Of a stretch of 64,000 nt of DNA, positions 503 through 61,334 are shown one piece after another (the stretch's first letter is position 1; the number at the start of each line of letters is the position of its first letter). The stretch lies in assembly GCA_965243255.1 (NCBI GenBank), contig CBDEUH010000004.1:1598979-1662978 (forward strand). Direction: 5' to 3'. Position numbers and translations under genes: made by a program. The notes under the pieces are model-generated. The model did no database searches and had not been told where the DNA came from. It saw only the letters and a program-made list of their open reading frames with translations. Origin of the DNA: Dehalococcoidia bacterium. GTDB taxonomy: Bacteria > Chloroflexota > Dehalococcoidia > Lucifugimonadales > UBA3495.

Positions 503-1132
503 ATGGGCATCATCTACATCAGCCGCCACGGCGAAACCGAGTGGAACGTTGCCGGCCGGATTCAGGGGCACACCGACGTGTCATTATCCGAACGCGGCCG
601 AGAGCAGGCCCGGATGCTGGGGCGGCGCCTGTCCTCCGTGCGCATCGACGCCGCATATTCGTCGGACCTGTCCCGCGCCGCCGAAACGGCCCGCGTTGCC
701 CTGGGCGAGCGCGATGTTCCCATAACCTTCACCGAGGAGTTGCGGGAATACAACAAGGGTGTGTTCGAGGGTCTGACCGAGGACGAGTACCGCGAGAAGT
801 ACCCCGAACTCTACGAGCCTTCGATGGTCAACGACCTGGACTTCGCGCCCCCCGGCGGCGAAACCATCCGCGAAACCAGTACACGCCTGGCCGGCATCGT
901 GCAACGGGTGAAGGACGCTCACCTGGACGAGAGCGCGCTCATCGTCGGGCATGGCGGCAGCCTGCGGGCCGGCATCGTTTCCCTGCTTGACCTGCCCCTG
1001 GAGGCCAACTGGAAGTTCGCCATGTCCAACTGCTCGCTGACGGTCATCTACACCTTTCCCGACAACGCCGTGATGCACCTCTACAACGACACCTCCCACA
1101 TCGCCGGCGTGGTGCGGGCGTGGGAGCGGTAA
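503..1132 (+). CDS. Histidine phosphatase family protein (phosphoglycerate mutase-like / alpha-ribazole phosphatase-like)
   Basis: N-terminal RHGET motif (ISRHGETEWN) and a second catalytic His in VGHGGSLR. GGGGAG RBS upstream. Confidence 0.8.
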   Translation: MGIIYISRHGETEWNVAGRIQGHTDVSLSERGREQARMLGRRLSSVRIDAAYSSDLSRAAETARVALGERDVPITFTEELREYNKGVFEGLTEDEYREKYPELYEPSMVNDLDFAPPGGETIRETSTRLAGIVQRVKDAHLDESALIVGHGGSLRAGIVSLLDLPLEANWKFAMSNCSLTVIYTFPDNAVMHLYNDTSHIAGVVRAWER

Positions 1133-3936: not shown

Positions 3937-5181
3937 ATGAGGCATCAGAATCGGAACCGAATCATTCCGTTGACGCTGTTATTGTTGGCCGCTACGGCGC
4001 TGCTCATGAGCGCGGCGGCCTGCCGCAGCGGCGCTGACGCTACACCCGCACCGGAGTTCGCTCTGCCCACTGCGTTGCCCAGCCCGGAAGCCGTACCCGC
4101 CCCCGGCGCCGGCAGCGAGGCCACCGCCTCTCGAACCTCGGATTACTGGACCGGCCCCACCACCTGGGAGCCCGAGGACGTGAGCAGCCTGGAACGGGTA
4201 ACCCAGGAACTGGTCGCGCCGCCGTTCCTGCCCGAACACCAGCAGGTGAACACCGGCGAGCCCAGGGTTGTGGAAGTCCACATGGTGGTGGAGGAAAAGG
4301 AAATTGAGGTTGCCCCCGGCGCGTTCATCTGGGCCTTTACCTTCAACGGCTCCGTCCCCGGCCCCATCATCGTGGTGCACGAGGGCGACTACGTAGAGCT
4401 GACCCTGGTGAACCCGTCGAGCAGCGAGTTGCTCCACAACATCGACTTCCACGCCTCGGTCGGCGCGCTGGGCGGCGGCTCCCTGACCCAGGTGGGGCCA
4501 GGACAGGAGGTCGTGCTGCGTTTCCGGGCCGTCAAGCCCGGCGTGTTCGTGTACCACTGCGCCCCCGGCGGCACCATGGTGCCCTGGCACGTAACCCACG
4601 GCATGAACGGCGCCATCATGGTTCTGCCCAAAGACGGGCTGAGAGACCCGGCCGGCAACCCGGTACCCTACGACCGCGCCTACTACATCGGCGAACAGGA
4701 TTACTACCTGCCCCGGGACGCCCACGGTGACTTCAAGCGCTACGACAGTCCGGCAGCGTCCCTGGTTGACGACCTGGAGGCAATGCAGACGCTGATGCCC
4801 ACGCACATCGTGTTCAACGGCGTAACCGGCGCGCTACAGGGCGACGGGCAGCTGACGGCCAACGTCGGCGAAAATGTCCTGATCGTCCACGCCCAGGCCA
4901 ACCGCCAGTCCTATCCCCACCTCATCGGCGGCCACGGCGACTACGTATGGGAGCGCGGCGGTTTCAACGACCCGCCCGAGCTGGACCTGGAAACCTGGAT
5001 CATCGCCGCAGGGTCCGCCGCGGCCTCCATCCACACCATCCGCCAGCCGGGAACCTACGTGTATCTGTCCCACAACCTGATTGAAGCCTTTGCCTGCGAT
5101 GCCAAGGCAATCCTGGTGGCCGAAGGCGAATGGAACGACGACCTGATGGAGCAGGTCAAGCCGCCGACCAACATCCAGTAG
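3937..5181 (+). CDS. nirK: Copper-containing nitrite reductase (NirK), predicted lipoprotein with a Pro/Ala-rich N-terminal linker
   Basis: HNIDFHA (type 2 Cu His), [20 protein letters not shown] (type 1 Cu Cys/His/Met) and HLIGGHGD. Lipobox-like LMSAAAC. Confidence 0.9.
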
Positions 5182-5200
5182 CCAGCGATCACTCTCACTC

Positions 5201-5235
5201 CGGGAGCGCGGTTGCATTGCGGCTGCGCTCCTTGT
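5201..5235 (+). terminator. Hairpin GGAGCGC-N15-GCGCTCC followed by a T-rich run, downstream of nirK
   Basis: Seen in sequence 20 nt after the nirK stop. Confidence 0.5.
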
Positions 5236-5297
5236 TATGTATAAAGCCAATCAAACCACGTCGGCCCACCAGATTGCCAGGCCGGGAGGCTTCCGCG

Positions 5298-5717
5298 ATG
5301 ACCACACCCAAATACACCTACACCTACGACCACATCCACGTCCGCACCAAGGACCCGGAGGGCATGGCCGGCTTTTTCGAGACCATGTTCGGCGCGAAAG
5401 TGCTCCGCCTCATCCAGAGCGACGGCGTGCCCCGCGTTGACCTGGATATCAACGGCCTGGCCATCTTCATCGCCTCGGTGCCGCCGGAAGAGCACCTTGA
5501 CCTGAGCCCGCGCGACCCCCACCTGGGCCTGGACCACTTCGGTTTCCGCGTGGACGACATCGACGGCGCCGTGGAAGACCTGCGCGGCAAGGGCGCCGAG
5601 ATTTACACCGAGCCGCGCACCATCCGGCCCGGCGTCCGCATTGCCTTCGTTCGCGGCCCCGACGACGTGCGCATCGAACTGCTGCAACGGGACGGGTCAG
5701 GTCTGATGGAAGAATAG
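5298..5717 (+). CDS. VOC (glyoxalase/bleomycin resistance/dioxygenase) family protein
   Basis: HIHVRTKDPEGMAGFFETMFGA and LDHFGFRVDDIDGAVEDLRGKG are typical VOC beta-alpha-beta-beta-beta modules. The start was moved to the internal ATG at 5298, because the ORF-track start at 5130 overlaps the nirK end. Confidence 0.8.
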   Translation: MTTPKYTYTYDHIHVRTKDPEGMAGFFETMFGAKVLRLIQSDGVPRVDLDINGLAIFIASVPPEEHLDLSPRDPHLGLDHFGFRVDDIDGAVEDLRGKGAEIYTEPRTIRPGVRIAFVRGPDDVRIELLQRDGSGLMEE

Positions 5718-5748
5718 GCTATGCCCGACGGCCCCGTGGAGCCGTAAA

Positions 5749-6576
5749 TCATCGCAGCCGGTAGGTCGCCGCCGTCTCCGCAACGCGCCCATCCTGGCGC
5801 AGCTTTTCCAGGTGGGTCCGCACGTTCCTGCCGGCAGCCTCCCGCAGCGACTTGCGCAGGTTCCGCGGATACACGGCGGTTACGATCTCATCCACCGTAC
5901 CGGCGCCGCCGGCCACCGCCGCCACTACCTGCTCCTCCCGGCCCTGGCGGTGGGCTATCTGCTGCAGGATGCGCTGTTCGCCCCGCAGGATGGTGTTGCC
6001 GTGGCCCGGACATACCACTTGGGGCCGGGTTTTCGCCATTCGGTTCAGCGAGTTCATATACAGTTTCAGGTTGCGCACGCTGGACGACGAGTTGCCCAGC
6101 AGGTTGTCGCCGCTAAAGAGCACCCGGTCGGGGCGGAGAAAGTAACAAACGTGGTCTTCTTCGTGTCCCGGCGTGAATAGAGGCCGCAGCCTGGCGCCGC
6201 CTCCGGTCTCGATGGTCTCCCGCGCGCCCAGCGCCGACACCGAATCGCCGCCCAGAATGTGCTGCAAGCGGGGTGCCAGCTTGGGATGGCAGCGCACCGG
6301 GCAGTCAAACGCTTCCTGCAGCCGGTCCAGCCCGCCGATGTGGTCGCCGTGCCCGTGGGTAATCAGGATGGCGTCGATGGCAGGTTCCCCCAGCTCCGTC
6401 CAGTATTCCAGGATTTGCCGCCGCCAAGCCCGGTACGGCTCGCCCGAGTCGATCATCACCATACGGCCGTTGGGGTCGCCAACGAAGTAAATCTGCGTGC
6501 CGCCCGGGTGCATCGCGCCGTAGGCGTTGGGGTCTTCGGAGATGTGCGTGCTGTACACCAGCTCGGTAATCTGCAT
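5749..6576 (-). CDS. MBL-fold metallo-hydrolase
   Basis: THGHGDHIGG motif, downstream TPGHEEDH and CPGHG. The start lies 10 nt after the trxB stop, suggesting co-transcription. Confidence 0.85.
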   Translation of the reverse strand: MQITELVYSTHISEDPNAYGAMHPGGTQIYFVGDPNGRMVMIDSGEPYRAWRRQILEYWTELGEPAIDAILITHGHGDHIGGLDRLQEAFDCPVRCHPKLAPRLQHILGGDSVSALGARETIETGGGARLRPLFTPGHEEDHVCYFLRPDRVLFSGDNLLGNSSSSVRNLKLYMNSLNRMAKTRPQVVCPGHGNTILRGEQRILQQIAHRQGREEQVVAAVAGGAGTVDEIVTAVYPRNLRKSLREAAGRNVRTHLEKLRQDGRVAETAATYRLR

Positions 6577-10566: not shown

Positions 10567-11223
10567 ATGGCCGGCGCCGCGCGGCTCCACATCGTCGATT
10601 TCGGCAGCGGCGCCCTGGCAATGCAGTTCGGATTGACCCTGGCCGTGCTGGACGCGTCGGAACGCGGTTTCCGGGTTCCTGAAGTCGGCGTTTCCCTTTT
10701 TGAACCCAACGACGCGATGCTGCGCATGGGCCTGAATGTATGGCAACGGTTCCTGCGCATCATGCACTATGATGGCGATGCTGACATCCCCACGTTGACC
10801 TCTTCCGTCCAAATCGGGGCCACCATGATACGCTCCGCGCGAATCACCAAGACCTCCGACATCAGCCTCCCCACGGACTCCCACCGTTGGTTGGTTGCCA
10901 TGCACGCCTACTACGCCGACGACCGGGAAAACATCAAACGCGACCTGGAGGCAATTCACCGGGCAGCCAAGCCTGATCTCGGTTTTCTGACTTACCACTA
11001 CGCCAGCCTCGACGGTATTCGCTACGTGTCGCCTTTTGCCAAACCGGGCAGTCCGGGCCCAATACCGCCGCTCCCGTTGTCCGGCGAACTAACCGAGGTC
11101 AACTCCTGGCGCAGTTCTCTGTCCCGGGCTCTGGGGTACCACGACGAAACCCGGTTAACCCGGCCAACTGAATGGGACCCGGTTCGGGGGCGGAGAGATA
11201 ACCGAGCCATCCTCTACGCCTAG
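10567..11223 (+). CDS. Hypothetical protein, possibly an N-terminally truncated Rossmann/methyltransferase-like remnant
   Basis: A VDFGSG glycine-rich loop lies only 10 aa from the start. There is an in-frame stop 40 nt upstream and no clear RBS. Confidence 0.45.
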   Translation: MAGAARLHIVDFGSGALAMQFGLTLAVLDASERGFRVPEVGVSLFEPNDAMLRMGLNVWQRFLRIMHYDGDADIPTLTSSVQIGATMIRSARITKTSDISLPTDSHRWLVAMHAYYADDRENIKRDLEAIHRAAKPDLGFLTYHYASLDGIRYVSPFAKPGSPGPIPPLPLSGELTEVNSWRSSLSRALGYHDETRLTRPTEWDPVRGRRDNRAILYA

Positions 11224-11276
11224 TCCCCTCCATCCTCGCCATCCGCGTAAAGATAAAATCCCTGACCCTGAAGCGC

Positions 11277-11306
11277 TTGACAATTGCCCGAACATCAGTT
11301 CATAAT
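11277..11306 (+). promoter_or_regulatory. Near-consensus promoter TTGACA-18-CATAAT driving the structured RNA element (copy 1)
   Basis: The same hexamers and the same 18-nt spacing are conserved in copy 2 (46213-46242, minus strand). Confidence 0.55.
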
Positions 11307-11312
11307 GGCCTT

Positions 11313-11834
11313 GTGCACATCCAAACCTGCCCCGTGCTCGATACGGGGTCCATCCATCCACAGCCTGCCAACGAGGTCAACATCACAACGGTCGTCAACG
11401 GCCAAAAACAGTCAGCTAATCCTAAATCGCACGAACGGTGCGGCCACAGCTGCCATTGACGGAGAACCGACTACCGTCATAGACACTGGAAGTGGCAACG
11501 GTGCGGCCACAGCTGCCATTGGCGGAGAACCGACTACCGTCATAGACACTGGAAGTGGCACGGTGCGACCACAGCTGCCATTGACGGATAACAGATTGCC
11601 GTCACAAACACTGGAAGTGGAAGTGCGTAAGAACCCCCCGGCCGTGGGACTGGCGGCGACCAAAGTGAATTCCGGAAACCGACCTCAGGCAGGCTACAAC
11701 CCAACCACCAACCACCGGAGGCCAACCCCAAATCCCGAAAATCCTGATTCTGACAACCCACCGGAGGCCATCCCCAACGAAAACCGCTAATCCCGTCAAC
11801 CCCCATAACTGCTTGCCCCGTACTCCATACGGGG
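11313..11834 (+). ncRNA. Candidate novel structured RNA, copy 1 (approximate ends): 5' hairpin, long-range helix enclosing three tandem hairpin modules, C/A-rich tail, 3' hairpin
   Basis: Long-range helix 11390-11403 / 11640-11661. Modules start at 11436, 11499 and 11561. GGAAGUG occurs four times and CACCGGAGGCCA twice. Hairpins CCCCGT-N7-ACGGGG lie at 11330-11348 and 11816-11834. The overlapping 168-aa ORF reads identical repeat units in two different frames. Confidence 0.55.
11436..11620 (+). repeat. Tandem repeat of three units (63, 62 and 60 nt) inside the candidate RNA
   Basis: Unit: CGGTGCGGCCACAGCTGCCATTGACGG-N11-CCGTCATAGACACTGGAAGTGGCAA. Units 1 and 2 are nearly identical. Unit 3 has a different loop and a 1-nt deletion. 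Confidence 0.9.
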
Positions 11835-11881
11835 AGCGGAAATCCTGATTCCGACGACTGCTGCGCGCCAGGCTATTCTTC

Positions 11882-11910
11882 TTGACACGGCAACTCCCGG
11901 CGGGTACTAT
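11882..11910 (+). promoter_or_regulatory. Candidate second promoter TTGACA-17-TACTAT in front of the DUF1800 operon leader
   Basis: Hexamers and spacing read from the sequence. An analogous TTGACC-17-TTTACT lies at the equivalent position of copy 2. Confidence 0.45.
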
Positions 11911-12033
11911 TCGGGCATCAGCCCGGAACCGTCGTGCGGCTGTGCTGTCATGTGGCCGTTCGCTACGGTTTCCGCCGTCAACCGACCCGTTTCGTAACCG
12001 AAACCGTCATCGACACCGCAGGAGGTACTTCTT

Positions 12034-13440
12034 ATGCCCACCAACCAGGAAATTGCCCAGATGGCGCACCTGATGCGTCGGGCCGGCTTCGGCGCCACCT
12101 ACGCCGAGCTGGAACAGCGCGCCGCCAATGGCTACGAAGCCACTGTCGAAGAACTGCTCAACCCCACCGCCCAGCCCGACCTGGAGATGGACATCCTCGA
12201 GCGCCACTTCGTCGATTGGAAAGAGATGAACGCCCTGGAAGTTAACCAGGCCTATCTCACCTATCGGATGATCAACACCGAGCGCCCCTTGCAGGAGAAG
12301 ATGTCCCTCTTCTGGCACGGCATCCTCTGCACCGGCAACTCCAAGTGCGAGCACGGCCGGCAGATTCAGTTGCAGTTGGACATGTTCCGCGAGCTGGGCA
12401 TGGGCAACTTTGAAGCCCTGCTCAAGGGCCTGGCCCGCGACCCGGCCATGGTCTTCTACCTGGACAACTGCATGAGCCACAAGGGCGCCATCAATGAGAA
12501 CTGGGGCCGCGAGTTGCTGGAACTCTTCGCCATGGGCGTCGGCATGGACGGCCACGCCAACTACAGCGAGGACGACGTCAAGGAAGCCGCCCGCGCCTTC
12601 ACCGGGTGGACCATCACCAACGCCATCCCGCGTTACCCCTACGGCCGTTATGAGTCCGGCTTCATCTACAATCCCTACGACCACGACGAAGAGGACAAGA
12701 CCTTCCTCGGCGAGACGGGCAACTTCAACGGCGACGACATCGTTGAAATCATCTGCCGCCAGCCCTCCGCCGCACGGTTCGTTTCCCGCCACCTCTACAA
12801 CTTCTTCGTGGCCGACGAGGTGCAGGTGCCGGCCTGGCAGAACACGCCGCCGCGGGACCCCGAGGCCATCGCCCTGCTGGAGCAGACCTACTTCGACTCC
12901 GGGTACAACCTGACCGCCATGCTGCGCGTTCTGTTCAACTCCGACTTCTTCAAGAACGCCCGCTTCGAGAAGGTTAAGAGCCCCACCGAAGTGGTCATCG
13001 GAACCATGCGCCTGGTGCAGGACTTCACCACCCCCAAGCTGGGCCTGCAGCCCCTGGCCAACACCATCCGCTACATGGGTCAGGACCTGATGAACCCGCC
13101 CACCGTGGAAGGCTGGCACACCGGCGCCGAGTGGATTGACTCCGGCACCCTGGTGGAGCGCATCAACTTCGCCGCCGACCAGGTTGGCAACACCAGCCTG
13201 CCCGGCGTCCGCGATATCGTGTCCCGCCTGAACAACGAGCAGGTGACCAGCCCGGACGCCATCGTTGACCGCTGCCTGGAGTTGGTCGGCTCCTACGAAC
13301 TTTCGCCGGAAACCCGCGATCAACTGATTGCCTATACCAGCGGCAGCGGCACTCCCGCCCCCGGCACGCCGGAATACTCTGAGGCCATCGCCCAGACTCT
13401 CCAGCTCATCGTCAGCACGCAGGAGTACCAGTTCGCTTAG
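12034..13440 (+). CDS. DUF1800 family protein
   Basis: HLMRRAGFGATYAELE N-terminal signature and the size are typical of DUF1800. It is followed by its usual DUF1501 partner. AGGAGG RBS. Confidence 0.85.
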   Translation: MPTNQEIAQMAHLMRRAGFGATYAELEQRAANGYEATVEELLNPTAQPDLEMDILERHFVDWKEMNALEVNQAYLTYRMINTERPLQEKMSLFWHGILCTGNSKCEHGRQIQLQLDMFRELGMGNFEALLKGLARDPAMVFYLDNCMSHKGAINENWGRELLELFAMGVGMDGHANYSEDDVKEAARAFTGWTITNAIPRYPYGRYESGFIYNPYDHDEEDKTFLGETGNFNGDDIVEIICRQPSAARFVSRHLYNFFVADEVQVPAWQNTPPRDPEAIALLEQTYFDSGYNLTAMLRVLFNSDFFKNARFEKVKSPTEVVIGTMRLVQDFTTPKLGLQPLANTIRYMGQDLMNPPTVEGWHTGAEWIDSGTLVERINFAADQVGNTSLPGVRDIVSRLNNEQVTSPDAIVDRCLELVGSYELSPETRDQLIAYTSGSGTPAPGTPEYSEAIAQTLQLIVSTQEYQFA

Positions 13441-44502: not shown

Positions 44503-44522
44503 ATTCCCGCCTACGCGGGAAT
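44503..44522. repeat. REP-like palindrome ATTCCCGC-N4-GCGGGAAT
   Basis: Same palindrome as at 9960-9979 and 49637-49656. Intergenic. Confidence 0.7.
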
Positions 44523-44589
44523 GACGGGTAAGGAGCGGGTTGAATGACGGGTAAGGAGCGGGTTGAATGACGGATAGGGAGCAGGTTAT
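44521..44589. repeat. Tandem 23-bp repeat in three copies (ATGACGGGTAAGGAGCGGGTTGA; third copy diverged), contiguous with the REP palindrome
   Basis: Period 23, with units starting at 44521, 44544 and 44567. The last unit runs into the stop codon of the LLM gene at 44586. Confidence 0.85.
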
Positions 44590-45635
44590 TTGAAGGCGGG
44601 AATTACTTTTTCGCAGAGGAGGCGGATGTTGCGCACCACCGTGTCGTGGGGAATCAGGCCGCCGGCGTTGAGTTCGGCGACGACGCCGTCGAGGCCCAAC
44701 TCCTCGCGCAGTTCGGCAAACCGGTCAACCAAACCCTCGGGAGTGCCGAAGGCCACCTTGGTTTGCAGGATGTCGTCGTAGCTGAGGGCGGCAAGGCGGG
44801 AGGCGCGCTGGTCGCGCAGTTCGGTCTGCTCGATACCGGCGGAACCGGAGTCGGCGGCGTAGAGGCGGCCCATGCGTCCGAAGTAGTTCTGGATGCTCTC
44901 GAAGGGCTCTTCGATGGCGGATTTTTCGGTGAGGCCCAGGTACACAGGGACGCGCAGGGACACGTCGCCGTTGCCATCGTGGCCGGCGGCGCGCCAGGCT
45001 TTGCGGTATTCCTTGAGGTTGTCGCGCAACTCGGGCACGTCCATACCGCGCAGGCCGACGAAGATAGGGTAGCCGTCGGCGCCGGCGCGGGGGAAGGTTT
45101 CGGCGGTGGTGGCGGCCATGCGGAAGGGCGGATGCGGCTTCTGGTAGGGCAGGGGCGCGACAGTGGCGTTGCTGACCTGGTGATACTTGCCGTCGTAGGA
45201 AAAGGGCTGGCCCTGCCACGCCTGCATGATGATGTCCAGGGCCTCGCGGAAACGGTCGCGGCTTTCGGCGTAGGGCACGCCGTAGATGTCGTAGGAGCGG
45301 GCGAAGCCGCTGCGCCCGATGCCGAAGTCGAAGCGCCCTTCGCTGATCTGGTCAACGGTGGCGACTTCCTCGGCGATGCGCAGGGGGTTGTTCAGGGGGA
45401 GGACGTACACGGCCATGCCGATGCGCAGGCGCCGGGTGCGGGTGGCGATGCTGCTGGCGATGGTGATGGGCGAGGACAGCACGGAGCGGTCGGGCGTGAA
45501 GTGCATTTCGGCCAGCCAGGCGCCGTCGAGTCCGCAGGCTTCGGCGGTGTCAACCAGCTCGAAGCCTTCGGAGAAAGCCTCGGCCTGGGAGCCGCCGGGC
45601 CGGGTTTCGAACTGCATAAACATACCGAAGTGCAT
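44586..45635 (-). CDS. LLM class flavin-dependent oxidoreductase/monooxygenase
   Basis: GLDGAWLAEMHF and FDFGIGRSG motifs with the typical length. AGGAG RBS. Confidence 0.85.
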   Translation of the reverse strand: MHFGMFMQFETRPGGSQAEAFSEGFELVDTAEACGLDGAWLAEMHFTPDRSVLSSPITIASSIATRTRRLRIGMAVYVLPLNNPLRIAEEVATVDQISEGRFDFGIGRSGFARSYDIYGVPYAESRDRFREALDIIMQAWQGQPFSYDGKYHQVSNATVAPLPYQKPHPPFRMAATTAETFPRAGADGYPIFVGLRGMDVPELRDNLKEYRKAWRAAGHDGNGDVSLRVPVYLGLTEKSAIEEPFESIQNYFGRMGRLYAADSGSAGIEQTELRDQRASRLAALSYDDILQTKVAFGTPEGLVDRFAELREELGLDGVVAELNAGGLIPHDTVVRNIRLLCEKVIPAFK

Positions 45636-45721
45636 CGTTCACGCTCCTGGAACCGCCGCTGAGTGCCCCTGCTGCCGTCGGTTCCGCAATTGCGCCAGTA
45701 AAGCACAGGGGTAAAAGGGGG

Positions 45722-46212
45722 TCAAGTTGGGGTTGTGGGGACGCCGGTGAGGGGCGTAGCGATGTGGCCGTTCGGGTTTGAGGTTCGTGGTATCGGCTTC
45801 ATTTTGGTTGGCTCCTTCGGATTGGGATTCGGTTTTCGGTAGGTTGGGCAGCCTGCGAGAGGTAAGGTGGTCGTTGTCAGCCCCACGGCCGGGGGTTGGT
45901 TACGCACTTCCACATAGGTGTTTTCGTACGAGCATGTAGTTAGCCGCACTGGCCGCAGTGGTATCGCGCCGTTGCCACTTCCGGTGTCTATGACGGTCAT
46001 CTGTTATCCGCCAATGGCAGCTGTGGCCGCACCGTTGTCACTTCCAGTGTTTGTGACGGCGATCTGTTATCCGTCAATGGCAGCAGTGACCGCACCGGCG
46101 TGCGTTGTTAGGATTTGCTGACGGTTGTGGCCGTTGACGACCGGAACCGTGATGGTTCTTGATTTACCTCGTTGCAGGCTGTGGGTTACCGATGATTCAC
46201 GCGTGTAGGGAT
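45722..46212 (-). ncRNA. Candidate novel structured RNA, copy 2 (diverged homolog of 11313-11834; approximate ends)
   Basis: Same block order as copy 1. Long-range helix 46129-46142 / 45869-45890. Two good modules plus one degenerate module (45903-46097). GGAAGUG occurs three times. C/A-rich tail with GGAGCCAACC. In-frame stop codons fall where copy 1 has an ORF. Confidence 0.5.
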
Positions 46213-46242
46213 ATTATGAACGAATGTTCGGTCAATTGTCAA
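46213..46242 (-). promoter_or_regulatory. Promoter TTGACA-18-CATAAT of RNA copy 2
   Basis: Hexamers and spacing are identical to copy 1, and the spacer is 15/18 identical. Confidence 0.55.
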
Positions 46243-46467
46243 TAGGCCGGCGTCGGTGATGTTGAGGGCGGTTTTGAGGACCCGGGGTTGTCGCCCCCCG
46301 GGTGATGTAGGCTCGCGGTTGTGTCGGAACCGGCGGAGGTTTTGAAGGTGCAGTGGGCCGGCATATCGCCGCTTGCTTCAGTTAAAGCGTATAATAGGCG
46401 ACGCGCCGGGCGGCGGGGCCGCGGTCCGGCAGGCAACGCAAACACACTGACAGGGAGCGGATGAGTC

Positions 46468-60161: not shown

Positions 60162-61334
60162 TTAGGGGCCGGTGCCTTCGAACATTGGCAACTGGCGGAT
60201 TTGGACGTCGGGGGAGAAGTGCTTGCTGAGGATGCGGCCGGCTTCCTGGTATGAGGAGCCGACTCTGGGGCCGTACCACCGGTCCGGCGGCTCCAGCATC
60301 TGCTCAAAGGCGAGGGTGCACACGGTTTGTCCCGGGCCCACCATGAAAGGGACATCGTGGGCGCGAACTTCCAGAACGGGCTGGATACCTCCCAACCGGC
60401 CGTTTTCGCCATAGCCGAATCCAGGGTCGAAGAAGCCGGCGTAATGAGTCCGGAGCTCGCCTTTGGCAGTTTCGTAAGCGGTCATCTCGGCGGCCAGCTG
60501 TGGGGGTATGCTCACGCTCTCTATTGAGGACACCAGGTAGAATTCTTCGGGCTCCAAAATCAGGCTGTGGCCCCGGTCTGCGAAAACAGGTTCCCAGAAA
60601 TCGCGGGGCGGGTAGCAATTGGTCAGCGAGAGGTCGAGAAGGCTGCTGTTCCTTTTGGCCCGGTAACCCACGAACCCCGACACGGCCAGCAAGTTGACGC
60701 TGAATCCCATTGAGTTACTGTCGTCAATCTCGGAGGATTGGGCGGGCTGCCGATCTTTGGTGAACAGAATGGGATCCCGCTCGTGCACGCGCCGCAGGTG
60801 TCCCGACTCACAGACGGGGCTGCCTTTGAACAGGCGAATCTGGTTCAAAGACAGACCCGTCTTCACCTTTACGGTGAATGACCTGGAGAACACCTCCAGG
60901 AACATACGGCCGTGATAGCCATCGGCGATGTCGTCGAAGCGTGGGCTGGCGTCGGTGATGACACGGGTGAAGATATCCAGCCGGCCGGTGGAGCTTTTGG
61001 GGTTGGTCTTGCCACGAATCCCGGGAGGCAGCTTGAGGCCCTCGATGAGAGGGATCAGATAGGCGCGGTTCTTTTCGAGAATCGCGCCATCGCGCAGGTC
61101 CATGTCCGCGATGGCAAGATCGGCCAACTTGTCCTGGACCGGGCCGGCGTAGGGCAGGAAACTGCTCTGCAAGACGTAGGCCGTTTCGCCCAGCCTCAGG
61201 TCGAGGCTAGCGGGCTGGTAATTTTGATCGGGGATCGTATATTGGCTGACGATAACCCCATCCTGAACGGCTTGCCTAAGCCATTTGGTCGGCAGGATAC
61301 CCCCCCTATCGATTTCGTTGATGTCCTGGAGCAT
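60162..61334 (-). CDS. 2'-deoxycytidine 5'-triphosphate deaminase (long DCD-family form)
   Basis: 390 aa. QPASLDLRLGETAYVLQSSFLP and duplicated dUTPase-like barrels resemble the DCD family as I recall it. Confidence 0.6.
   Translation of the reverse strand: MLQDINEIDRGGILPTKWLRQAVQDGVIVSQYTIPDQNYQPASLDLRLGETAYVLQSSFLPYAGPVQDKLADLAIADMDLRDGAILEKNRAYLIPLIEGLKLPPGIRGKTNPKSSTGRLDIFTRVITDASPRFDDIADGYHGRMFLEVFSRSFTVKVKTGLSLNQIRLFKGSPVCESGHLRRVHERDPILFTKDRQPAQSSEIDDSNSMGFSVNLLAVSGFVGYRAKRNSSLLDLSLTNCYPPRDFWEPVFADRGHSLILEPEEFYLVSSIESVSIPPQLAAEMTAYETAKGELRTHYAGFFDPGFGYGENGRLGGIQPVLEVRAHDVPFMVGPGQTVCTLAFEQMLEPPDRWYGPRVGSSYQEAGRILSKHFSPDVQIRQLPMFEGTGP

Follow-up and report, generated by a model that had tools for sequence, protein, structure and literature searches.

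The 64,000-nt stretch of Dehalococcoidia DNA analysed here (the window) holds two diverged copies of one promoter-bearing element, copy 1 at 11277-~11880 on the plus strand and copy 2 at 46242-~45726 on the minus strand. We read each copy as a self-contained gene for a structured non-coding RNA (ncRNA), one member of an accessory family that occurs in multiple copies within a single lineage of uncultured Dehalococcoidia, and we give this reading a probability of roughly 0.45. Because copies sit at different intergenic sites in close relatives, the element is an add-on RNA gene rather than a built-in switch of the operons that it faces. Judged from nine copies, which show little covariation, it appears to represent a credible new RNA family with an odd design of core plus cargo.

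Two diverged copies in the window

An earlier note on this DNA had paired the two stretches through a series of shared landmarks; each of these was found in its place, and the stretches are true diverged copies that match block by block. Alignment of 11230-12040 (plus strand) with 45630-46290 (minus strand) by MAFFT gave a mean column identity of 73%, and blastn gave 79.5% identity across 322 nt between copy 1 and copy 2 and 85-93% between modules. The same TTGACA-18-CATAAT promoter opens both copies (11277-11306, plus strand; 46242-46213, minus strand), with spacers identical at 15/18 positions, and the two promoters are among only three sites in the window that score 11/12 against the consensus. 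The conserved block CCACAGCCTGC(C)AACGAGGT is present in copies 1 and 2, the long-range helix of GGTCGT..ACGGCC (46142-46129) with GGCCGT..ACGACC (45890-45869) is fully complementary, and the junction GGAAGTGCGTAA..CCCCCGGCCGTGGG and a C/A-rich tail with the motif GGAGCCAACC (45818-45806) were both recovered. The similarity arises neither from low-complexity sequence, which the note had named beforehand as the finding that would overturn it, nor from chance. Within the window, the module core pattern occurs at 0 mismatches only in copies 1 and 2, and CGAAC-N4-GTTC is confined to their promoters. Behind copy 2 lies the five-gene redox operon that had been described, its products assigned with Pfam as LLM, 2-hydroxyacid dehydrogenase, Zn-ADH/quinone oxidoreductase, methyltransferase and LLM. 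The parts of both copies are listed below, with P1, P2a, P2b, X and P3 as the helices, primes marking their 3′ strands, and L numbers standing for loci of relatives.

46213-46242, minus strand: copy 2 promoter, TTGACA (46242-46237), 18-nt spacer, CATAAT (46218-46213)
46230-46218, minus strand: copy 2 GAAC-N4-GTTC box, CGAACATTCGTTC, inside the promoter spacer
46164-46181, minus strand: copy 2 5′ strands of P1, CAGCCUGC (46181-46174) and GAGGUAA (46170-46164)
46100-46142, minus strand: copy 2 5′ core, P2a GGUCGU (46142-46137), P2b ACGGCC (46134-46129), X GUCAGC (46122-46117), P3 ACGCAC (46105-46100)
45908-46099, minus strand: copy 2 variable interior, two good 63-nt hairpin modules and a degenerate unit, which is the ancestral hairpin common to L059
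45849-45907, minus strand: copy 2 3′ core, P3′ GUGCGU (45907-45902), P2b′ GGCCGU (45890-45885), X′ GCUGAC (45881-45876), P2a′ ACGACC (45874-45869), P1b′ UUACCUC (45865-45859), P1a′ GCAGGCUG (45856-45849)
45726-45848, minus strand: copy 2 C/A-rich, G-poor tail with GAAGGAGCCAACC (45818-45806), no intrinsic terminator, putatively like a Rho utilisation (rut) site
45697-45725, minus strand: native promoter of the LLM operon, outside the element, TTGACC-17-TTTACT, kept at the empty sites of L062 and L064
11277-11306, plus strand: copy 1 promoter, TTGACA-18-CATAAT with CGAACATCAGTTC (11289-11301)
11362-11432, plus strand: copy 1 5′ scaffold, P1a AGCCUGCC (11362-11369), P1b GAGGUC (11373-11378), P2a (11390-11395), P2b (11398-11403), X (11411-11415), P3 CGCAC (11428-11432)
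11434-11620, plus strand: copy 1 interior, three tandem 63-nt hairpin modules, each with the P3 3′ strand GUGCG
11623-11695, plus strand: copy 1 3′ scaffold, P3′ (11623-11627), P2b′ (11640-11645), X′ CUGGC (11650-11654), P2a′ GCGACC (11656-11661), P1b′ (11681-11686), P1a′ (11688-11695)
11696-11881, plus strand: copy 1 C/A-rich tail with two GGAGGCCA motifs, the hairpin CCCCGUACUCCAUACGGGG and two copies of the common intergenic motif AATCCTGATTCYGAC
11882-11910, plus strand: native promoter of the DUF1800 operon, outside the element, TTGACA-17-TACTAT, kept in the element-free L043 site

Copies and empty sites in close relatives

Relatives were obtained through contig look-ups anchored on proteins (homologs of the DUF1800 protein, ADH and ArgG), because direct scans with DNA patterns returned chance matches. 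These homologs assign the window to uncultured Chloroflexota/Dehalococcoidia, while exact-protein look-ups found no record of the window's proteins. The search for further copies that had been proposed thus succeeded by the protein route, with three full copies and four known through translated open reading frames (ORFs), and failed by the direct one. The full copies are as follows.

L043, 20555-~20960: between an ADH gene and tRNA-Gly(GCC)
L059, 14056-~14480: ortholog of copy 2, between argD and an LLM gene; L060 and L061 are partial duplicates of this copy
L062, 1175-~690, minus strand: upstream of a PEPCK-like gene

The other four copies (P0361, P0362, P0365 and P0366) came from a search of 1.84 billion protein representatives with the spurious ORF of copy 1, in which 4 of 8 matches at E<=0.001 trace to element copies; all four have an invariant PPAVGL. 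P0361, on a 3.07-Mb NCBI contig, carries the same three-module array as copy 1 and is 89% identical to the copy 1 ORF. One ArgG match (82%) carries a label that gives the sponge Geodia barretti as its source, a weak hint on habitat.

The five full copies occupy four unrelated intergenic slots, and empty sites were found at three slots. The argD-LLM gap is empty, with a length of 201 nt, in L062 (ArgG 96% identical) and L064 (98%), both of which retain TTGACC-17-TTTACT, and L043 has 68 nt in place of window positions 11223-11896, with homology resuming at the DUF1800 promoter TTGACA-17-TAnTAT. Because the empty sites retain these promoters, the "second weak promoters" that had been counted as parts of the element are the operons' own, and the element is an insertion upstream of them. 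The element is likewise absent upstream of the orthologous DUF1800 genes in L035-L052, all the loci fetched for that gene, and the L043 copy is missing from the window, which at the L062 slot has a 390-aa ORF instead. The suggestion that the element is a leader or regulator owned by the operons that it faces is not supported by this comparison, since sister genomes have the same operons behind their own promoters without it. What stands of the "reusable regulatory cassette" of the earlier note is a portable transcription unit; regulation of the faced operons finds no support, with read-through in cis as a possible residue. The downstream units, when tabulated (DUF1800 operon, LLM redox operon, tRNA-Gly, PEPCK-like gene), proved unrelated in function.

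No copies beyond the five were detected by nhmmer with scaffold profiles in all fetched relative loci, and blastn of the element against plasmids and phages returned nothing. A scan of genome contigs with the module core GCTGCCATTGRCGGAKAAC, a pattern too specific to the window modules, gave 34 single chance matches, of which the sole one from Chloroflexia (L004) was rejected as a copy, as it sits within a gene. Metagenome contigs of JGI scanned with GCGTAAN{2,4}CCCCCGGCCGTGGG gave 2 chance matches, and scans of viral contigs gave chance matches in coding regions. Four short-read contigs (L044, L048, L060 and L061) end inside the element, as expected of a multi-copy repeat.

Similarity among the copies starts at the -35 hexamer. 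Comparison of filled with empty junctions, together with a repeat search, revealed no terminal inverted repeats, the inverted blocks being internal and nested. In the filled argD-LLM site, ~18 nt of the empty one have been replaced; no duplication is visible there, but the flanks are too diverged to judge by, and extra DNA was co-inserted. No transposase or integrase gene lies beside the element in the window. The family is a mosaic, in that copy 1 joins a type A body (defined below) to a tail like that of L062. A shared upstream partner ORF was considered and rejected, the upstream proteins being unrelated to each other.

A near-invariant core around differing interiors

All five full copies have the same order of parts: promoter, P1 in two segments, P2a, P2b, X, P3, interior, 3′ strands and a C/A-rich tail with a GGAG(G)CCAA motif. 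The promoter lies 50-85 nt upstream of the P1 closing helix, and P1 encloses a near-invariant core with the helices P2a (GGUCGU/RCGACC), P2b (ACGGCC/GGCCGU), X (GUCAG/CUGRC) and P3, the last in the variants CGCAC/GUGCG, CGCAAG/CUUGCG and CGCAA/UUGCG. The core strands GGUCGU-NN-ACGGCC and GGCCGU-GGGRCUGRC-RCGACC can form either the long-range P2a/P2b or two local hairpins. Because P2b′ precedes X′ on the 3′ side, X would be pseudoknotted with P2b if both form. RNAalifold returned the local hairpins GGUCG(NNNN)CGGCC and CCCCG(GCCG)UGGGG and kept X, P3 and P1. The alignment cannot choose between the long-range and local folds because the positions are invariant, and the core may be bistable.

The interior divides the copies into two types. 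In type A (copies 1 and 2 and L059) it is built from one hairpin domain, which L059 has in a single, ancestral form with an outer stem CCAC/GUGG, an inner 6-bp stem and an 11-13-nt loop containing UAAC; copy 1 has three such units, and copy 2 has two good ones and the ancestral one. Tandem Repeats Finder reported 63 nt x 3.0 at 11434-11620 with 92% matches in copy 1, and 63 nt x 2.1 at 45965-46097 with 85% matches in copy 2, followed by the degenerate unit. The type B interior (L043 and L062) spans ~190 nt and is unrelated to that of type A. The modules ending in GGAAGUG, noted earlier as two good and one degenerate in copy 2, are thus present as described, but they are no feature of the family. 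Because each 63-nt module bears its own GUGCG, P3 is possible in several registers. Between copy 1 and copy 2, the modules are 90-93% identical, above the 79.5% of the 322-nt scaffold block, and the L059 ortholog lacks good modules; this suggests that in the lineage of the window the modules were amplified and exchanged between copies.

For the pairing analysis, the scaffolds of the five copies were aligned with MAFFT after the interior had been replaced by GAAA. The 29 named pairs are 98.6% paired, versus 18-43% with slid partners. P1b position 6 is A-U in two copies, G-C in two and C-G in one, and P3 position 5 is C-G in two copies and A-U in two; two further pairs switch between U-A and U-G, and one has a single unpaired copy. 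Outer P1 differs throughout between the types with complementarity kept (AGCCUGC/GCAGGCU versus GCCAGAGGUGA/UCACCUCUGGC). In nine copies, the purine opposite U in X′ and the one in P2a′ change independently of each other and only between A and G, as read from Ala/Thr codons in the four ORF-only copies. In the stems of the modules, A-U pairs have become G-U, and in one double change C-G has become U-A (GGCCAC/GUGGC versus GGUCAC/GUGAC). Wobble and compensatory changes of this kind are neutral on the promoter strand only, and an RNA structure is likely, judging from the aligned copies. The earlier argument for selection at the RNA level is upheld, and the constraint is on the RNA of the promoter strand in an element that is non-coding: no frame is kept, the helices persist through compensatory and U-A/U-G changes, and the same promoter recurs.

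Promoter, LexA-like box and tail

Between -35 and -10, copies 1, 2 and L059 have a perfect GAAC-N4-GTTC palindrome, in which substitutions are confined to N4 and the flanks. Of the 9 occurrences of the motif in 402 kb of related sequence, 5 fall within elements. Dehalococcoides LexA has the same GAAC-N4-GTTC box. It is also the LexA box of Gram-positive bacteria (PMC3323433). From the sequence match, the box of type A is a candidate LexA operator, and SOS control is offered as a hypothesis that is limited to type A because the box is degenerate and displaced in type B.

No terminator-like hairpin was found in copies 1 and 2. Over the 110 nt past P1, four of the five copies contain 41-45% C and 13-17% G, L043 being weaker with 32% C and 18% G, compared with 31% C and 32% G for the whole window. 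Rut sites are marked by a long untranslated stretch that is rich in C and poor in G, and such a stretch normally triggers Rho termination. Because the tail is C-rich, G-poor and untranslated, a Rho-dependent stop before the promoter of the neighbour would be expected.

The AATCCTGATTCYGAC motif of the copy 1 tail was rejected as a component, since it is a feature of native promoter-upstream regions and is also present where the element is missing. Intergenic DNA further holds a recurrent motif, (A)AATCCYGATTCYGAC(R)A, often after AATCCCGAAAATCC, which is found from directly before to ~30 nt ahead of promoter-like -35 boxes, whether or not the RNA element is present, and which in places seems to supply the -35 itself (window 11740-11754, 11841-11855 and, on the minus strand, 60143-60129; L055 6045; L062 689-703, minus strand, and 19870; L063 4078 and 13769). 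The motif is a separate feature, perhaps a UP-like or factor-binding site. Near-identical hairpins, TGCCCCGTRCTCSATACGGGG, bracket copy 1 at 11328-11348, just past the start site, and at 11814-11834 in the tail, and recur in the L062 tail at ~715-735 (minus strand).

Coding potential and database matches

The 168-codon ORF of copy 1 (11284-11790) has its start codons inside the promoter and changes register relative to the repeat within its own third module. As had been reported, the frame that it keeps open is broken in copy 2, and no open frame is conserved across the copies. A small ORF of 26 codons after a Shine-Dalgarno (SD)-like motif was rejected as conserved; it exists only in copy 2 and L059, and its 7 non-synonymous versus 2 synonymous codon differences indicate no purifying selection. 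Rfam 15 at the gathering threshold found only 2 tRNAs in the whole window, and at E<=10 it gave unrelated matches of 14-20 bits to copies 1, 2, L043 and L062, versus gathering scores of 37-100. A tmRNA or tRNA-like identity was rejected (ARAGORN and Rfam negative), and literature searches returned no description of the element RNA.

Variable slots around the element

Several neighbouring sites differ among the same genomes. At the L062 slot, window 60162-61334 (minus strand) has an unannotated 390-aa ORF where L062 690-1806 has a 170-aa ORF and the element, and the flanking 2-hydroxyacid dehydrogenase and PEPCK-like genes have ~91% DNA identity to the window. The 218-aa ORF upstream of copy 1 (10567-11223), without a Pfam match, aligns only to residues 102-313 of its 318-aa L043 ortholog, at 52% identity; it is N-terminally shorter or mis-started, and has diverged far beyond its neighbours. 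Directly upstream of the L059 copy, L059 12582-13994 encodes a protein of 470 aa that has a signal peptide, an internal duplication and no match in Pfam, at whose position the window has only ~150 nt with the common short stretch TTCAAAACCTC. In L035, a gene for an IS1-family transposase (HTH_23 + DDE_Tnp_IS1; 5055-5814) directly precedes the DUF1800 gene where the element is lacking, which is another sign of an insertion hot spot at the DUF1800 slot. The argG-argD slot, empty in the window and L059, holds differing toxin-antitoxin-like modules (PIN-PIN, DUF433-DUF5615) in L062 (11201-12291) and L064 (11192-11778). Hypervariable intergenic slots are scattered throughout the conserved arg/LLM region. 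Within the LLM operon, the 23-nt unit AACCCGCTCCTTACCCGTCATTC (minus strand; window 44519-44587), between the LLM and 2-hydroxyacid dehydrogenase genes, is present three times in the window, twice in L064 and once each in L059 and L062; it is a second tandem copy-number polymorphism of this operon, just upstream of a small hairpin and the SD sequence of the next gene.

Proposed function and alternative readings

We propose that an RNA of ~350-550 nt would be made from the element's own promoter, that Rho would halt its transcription in the rut-like tail, short of the promoter of the neighbour, and that it would act in trans via the conserved core, e.g. through a protein partner or as a decoy. 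The distal hairpin domain would be dispensable or dose-variable cargo, tandemly amplified to three units in the lineage of the window and probably exchanged between copies 1 and 2, and the type A copies may be inducible by DNA damage via the candidate LexA operator.

Several observations weigh against this reading. We infer the RNA itself, its ends and Rho termination from the sequence, and no partner protein or target has been identified. Just 2 of the 29 core pairs change on both sides and 24 never vary, RNAalifold favours two local hairpins over the long-range P2, and the minimum free energy z-scores are modest (-1.1, -2.2 and -1.7). The invariant P2b and most of the core are silent on pairing, so that sequence-specific recognition in DNA or RNA could fit equally well. 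The LexA-like box is perfect only in type A, where common ancestry applies, and is degenerate and displaced in type B, with 1-2 mismatches in L062 and L043. Finally, at all four independent loci the element points the same way as the gene downstream, which fits a role in cis at least as well as one in trans.

The last point leads to the alternative that we take most seriously and nevertheless regard as doubtful, namely that the element is a cis-acting portable cassette of promoter and leader, which supplies an extra, possibly SOS-controlled promoter and tunes read-through by means of a structured leader, through Rho-dependent attenuation or processive antitermination. At each of the four co-oriented loci it ends ~20-200 nt from the promoter of the next gene, it has no intrinsic terminator, and putative mobile promoters with RNA motifs have already been described (PMC3575422). 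Co-orientation at 4/4 loci, however, has a chance expectation of ~6%, and the downstream units are unrelated in function, keep their own conserved promoters and exist without the element in sister genomes. A C-rich, G-poor tail that runs untranslated for 110-200 nt would, moreover, normally cause Rho termination. An expression platform of the riboswitch kind was not found, as there is no terminator-like site and a complete native promoter lies between element and ORF. Nor is there the fixed downstream gene family expected of a cis-leader, with DUF1800 loci L035-L052 and argD-LLM loci L062 and L064 free of the element.

A selfish DNA repeat, resembling a miniature inverted-repeat transposable element (MITE) or a recombination cassette, whose inverted blocks are protein sites on DNA and whose RNA is functionless, is in our view unlikely. 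It would suit the presence/absence polymorphism at three loci in genomes with 96-98% ArgG identity, the location of copies in hypervariable intergenic slots beside strain-specific ORFs or tRNA-Gly, the contigs that break within the element, the core blocks invariant in sequence and the mosaic make-up of the family. The filled and empty junctions, however, show no terminal inverted repeats and, as far as their diverged flanks allow, no visible target-site duplications, the inverted blocks being internal and nested rather than terminal; no transposase or integrase gene is adjacent in the window, and the IS1 of L035 is at an element-free site. The family similarity begins at a functional -35 hexamer, and the changes are wobble-neutral and compensatory on one strand.

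We assign very little weight to a decoy made of repeated RNA, either a ToxI-like type III antitoxin or a CsrB/RsmZ-like sponge whose tandem modules bind a protein. The promoter is followed by 2-3 tandem 63-nt hairpin units with GGAA in the internal loop of each, and SD-like GGAG motifs lie in the tail, but this array is confined to the window copies and P0361. Since neither the L059 ortholog nor type B has good modules, these cannot be the core function of the family. No toxin-like gene follows any copy (the genes there being DUF1800, LLM, tRNA-Gly and the PEPCK-like gene), GGA is not enriched (~12 in copy 1 versus ~10 expected, by manual count) and no CsrA was identified. A gene for a protein of 21-residue repeats can practically be dismissed: a 168-codon ORF is indeed open through copy 1 and the similar P0361 was called in another genome, but the start codons lie within the promoter, the frame slips against the repeat in module 3, a TAA closes it in copy 2, the interior is absent or unrelated in other copies, and 1.84 billion representatives gave only 4 short ORFs, those tracing to element copies. 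Readings outside those listed are together improbable, if rather less so than the decoy.

The reading of the copies as RNA genes can be extended, more speculatively, to a new class of mobile RNA genes, in which a complete unit running from promoter to rut site spreads among intergenic slots of Dehalococcoidia, its invariant, bistable or pseudoknotted core serving as a handle for a protein (a recombinase, defence effector or other ribonucleoprotein partner), its interior, hairpin arrays or the 190-nt domain, being exchangeable, and one subfamily being switched by LexA and DNA damage; as a whole, we consider this extension somewhat unlikely.

If the RNA-gene reading is true, the element would define a family of large structured RNAs, so far uncatalogued, in a bacterial lineage that is uncultured and abundant in the environment, with an unusual design in which a near-invariant core with two exclusive or pseudoknotted folds surrounds a swappable interior. 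It would also have been gained and lost between genomes with 96-98% identical housekeeping proteins, and because gain and loss occur among such close genomes, it would lend itself well to the study of how genes for RNA, beside those for proteins, spread and diverge. In these assemblies, the element accounts for several spurious "hypothetical proteins" and for contig breaks, and to annotate nearby operons as regulated by it is unwarranted on sequence alone.

Comparison with known systems

Like the repeats of ToxI antitoxins, the modules follow a promoter as tandem direct repeats of a structured RNA unit; unlike ToxI, the element has no adjacent endoribonuclease toxin gene, and its repeats are set in a conserved scaffold and absent from most members. 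It shares with CsrB/RsmZ a variable number of repeated hairpins with GGA-containing loops, in stand-alone genes with strong promoters, and differs in that GGA is not enriched and the conserved part is the non-repeated core; to our knowledge, no CsrA is known for this Dehalococcoidia lineage. The perfect GAAC-N4-GTTC between -35 and -10 in copies 1, 2 and L059 recalls the LexA-repressed promoters of Gram-positive bacteria (PMC3323433), from which the type B copies depart with their degenerate and displaced box.

A commentary (PMC3575422) on putative mobile promoters (Matus-Garcia, Nijveen & van Passel 2012) describes homologous promoter-bearing non-coding sequences upstream of unrelated genes in one genome, some of which carry RNA motifs and whose mode of movement is given there as unknown. 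The element likewise consists of promoter-bearing non-coding homologs ahead of unrelated genes, but it is much longer (>400 nt), has a helical core, a variable interior and a rut-like tail, and is inserted upstream of intact native promoters without replacing them. With Correia elements, ERIC and REPIN it has in common that it is multi-copy, intergenic and polymorphic in presence or absence, with hairpins in RNA and a promoter; those repeats, in contrast, are 100-150 bp long with terminal inverted repeats and, in Correia, a TA duplication. GOLLD, ROOL, OLE, HEARO and raiA resemble the element in having several hundred nt, many helices and a patchy distribution, some near tRNA genes or in mobile DNA, and were of unknown function when found. 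The element differs from these in having no Rfam 15 match even at E<=10, in belonging to another phylum and in its swappable interior. Without the defining features of any of these systems, the element is nearest in behaviour to the putative mobile promoters and the promoter-bearing intergenic repeats, and in size and complexity to the orphan large ncRNAs.

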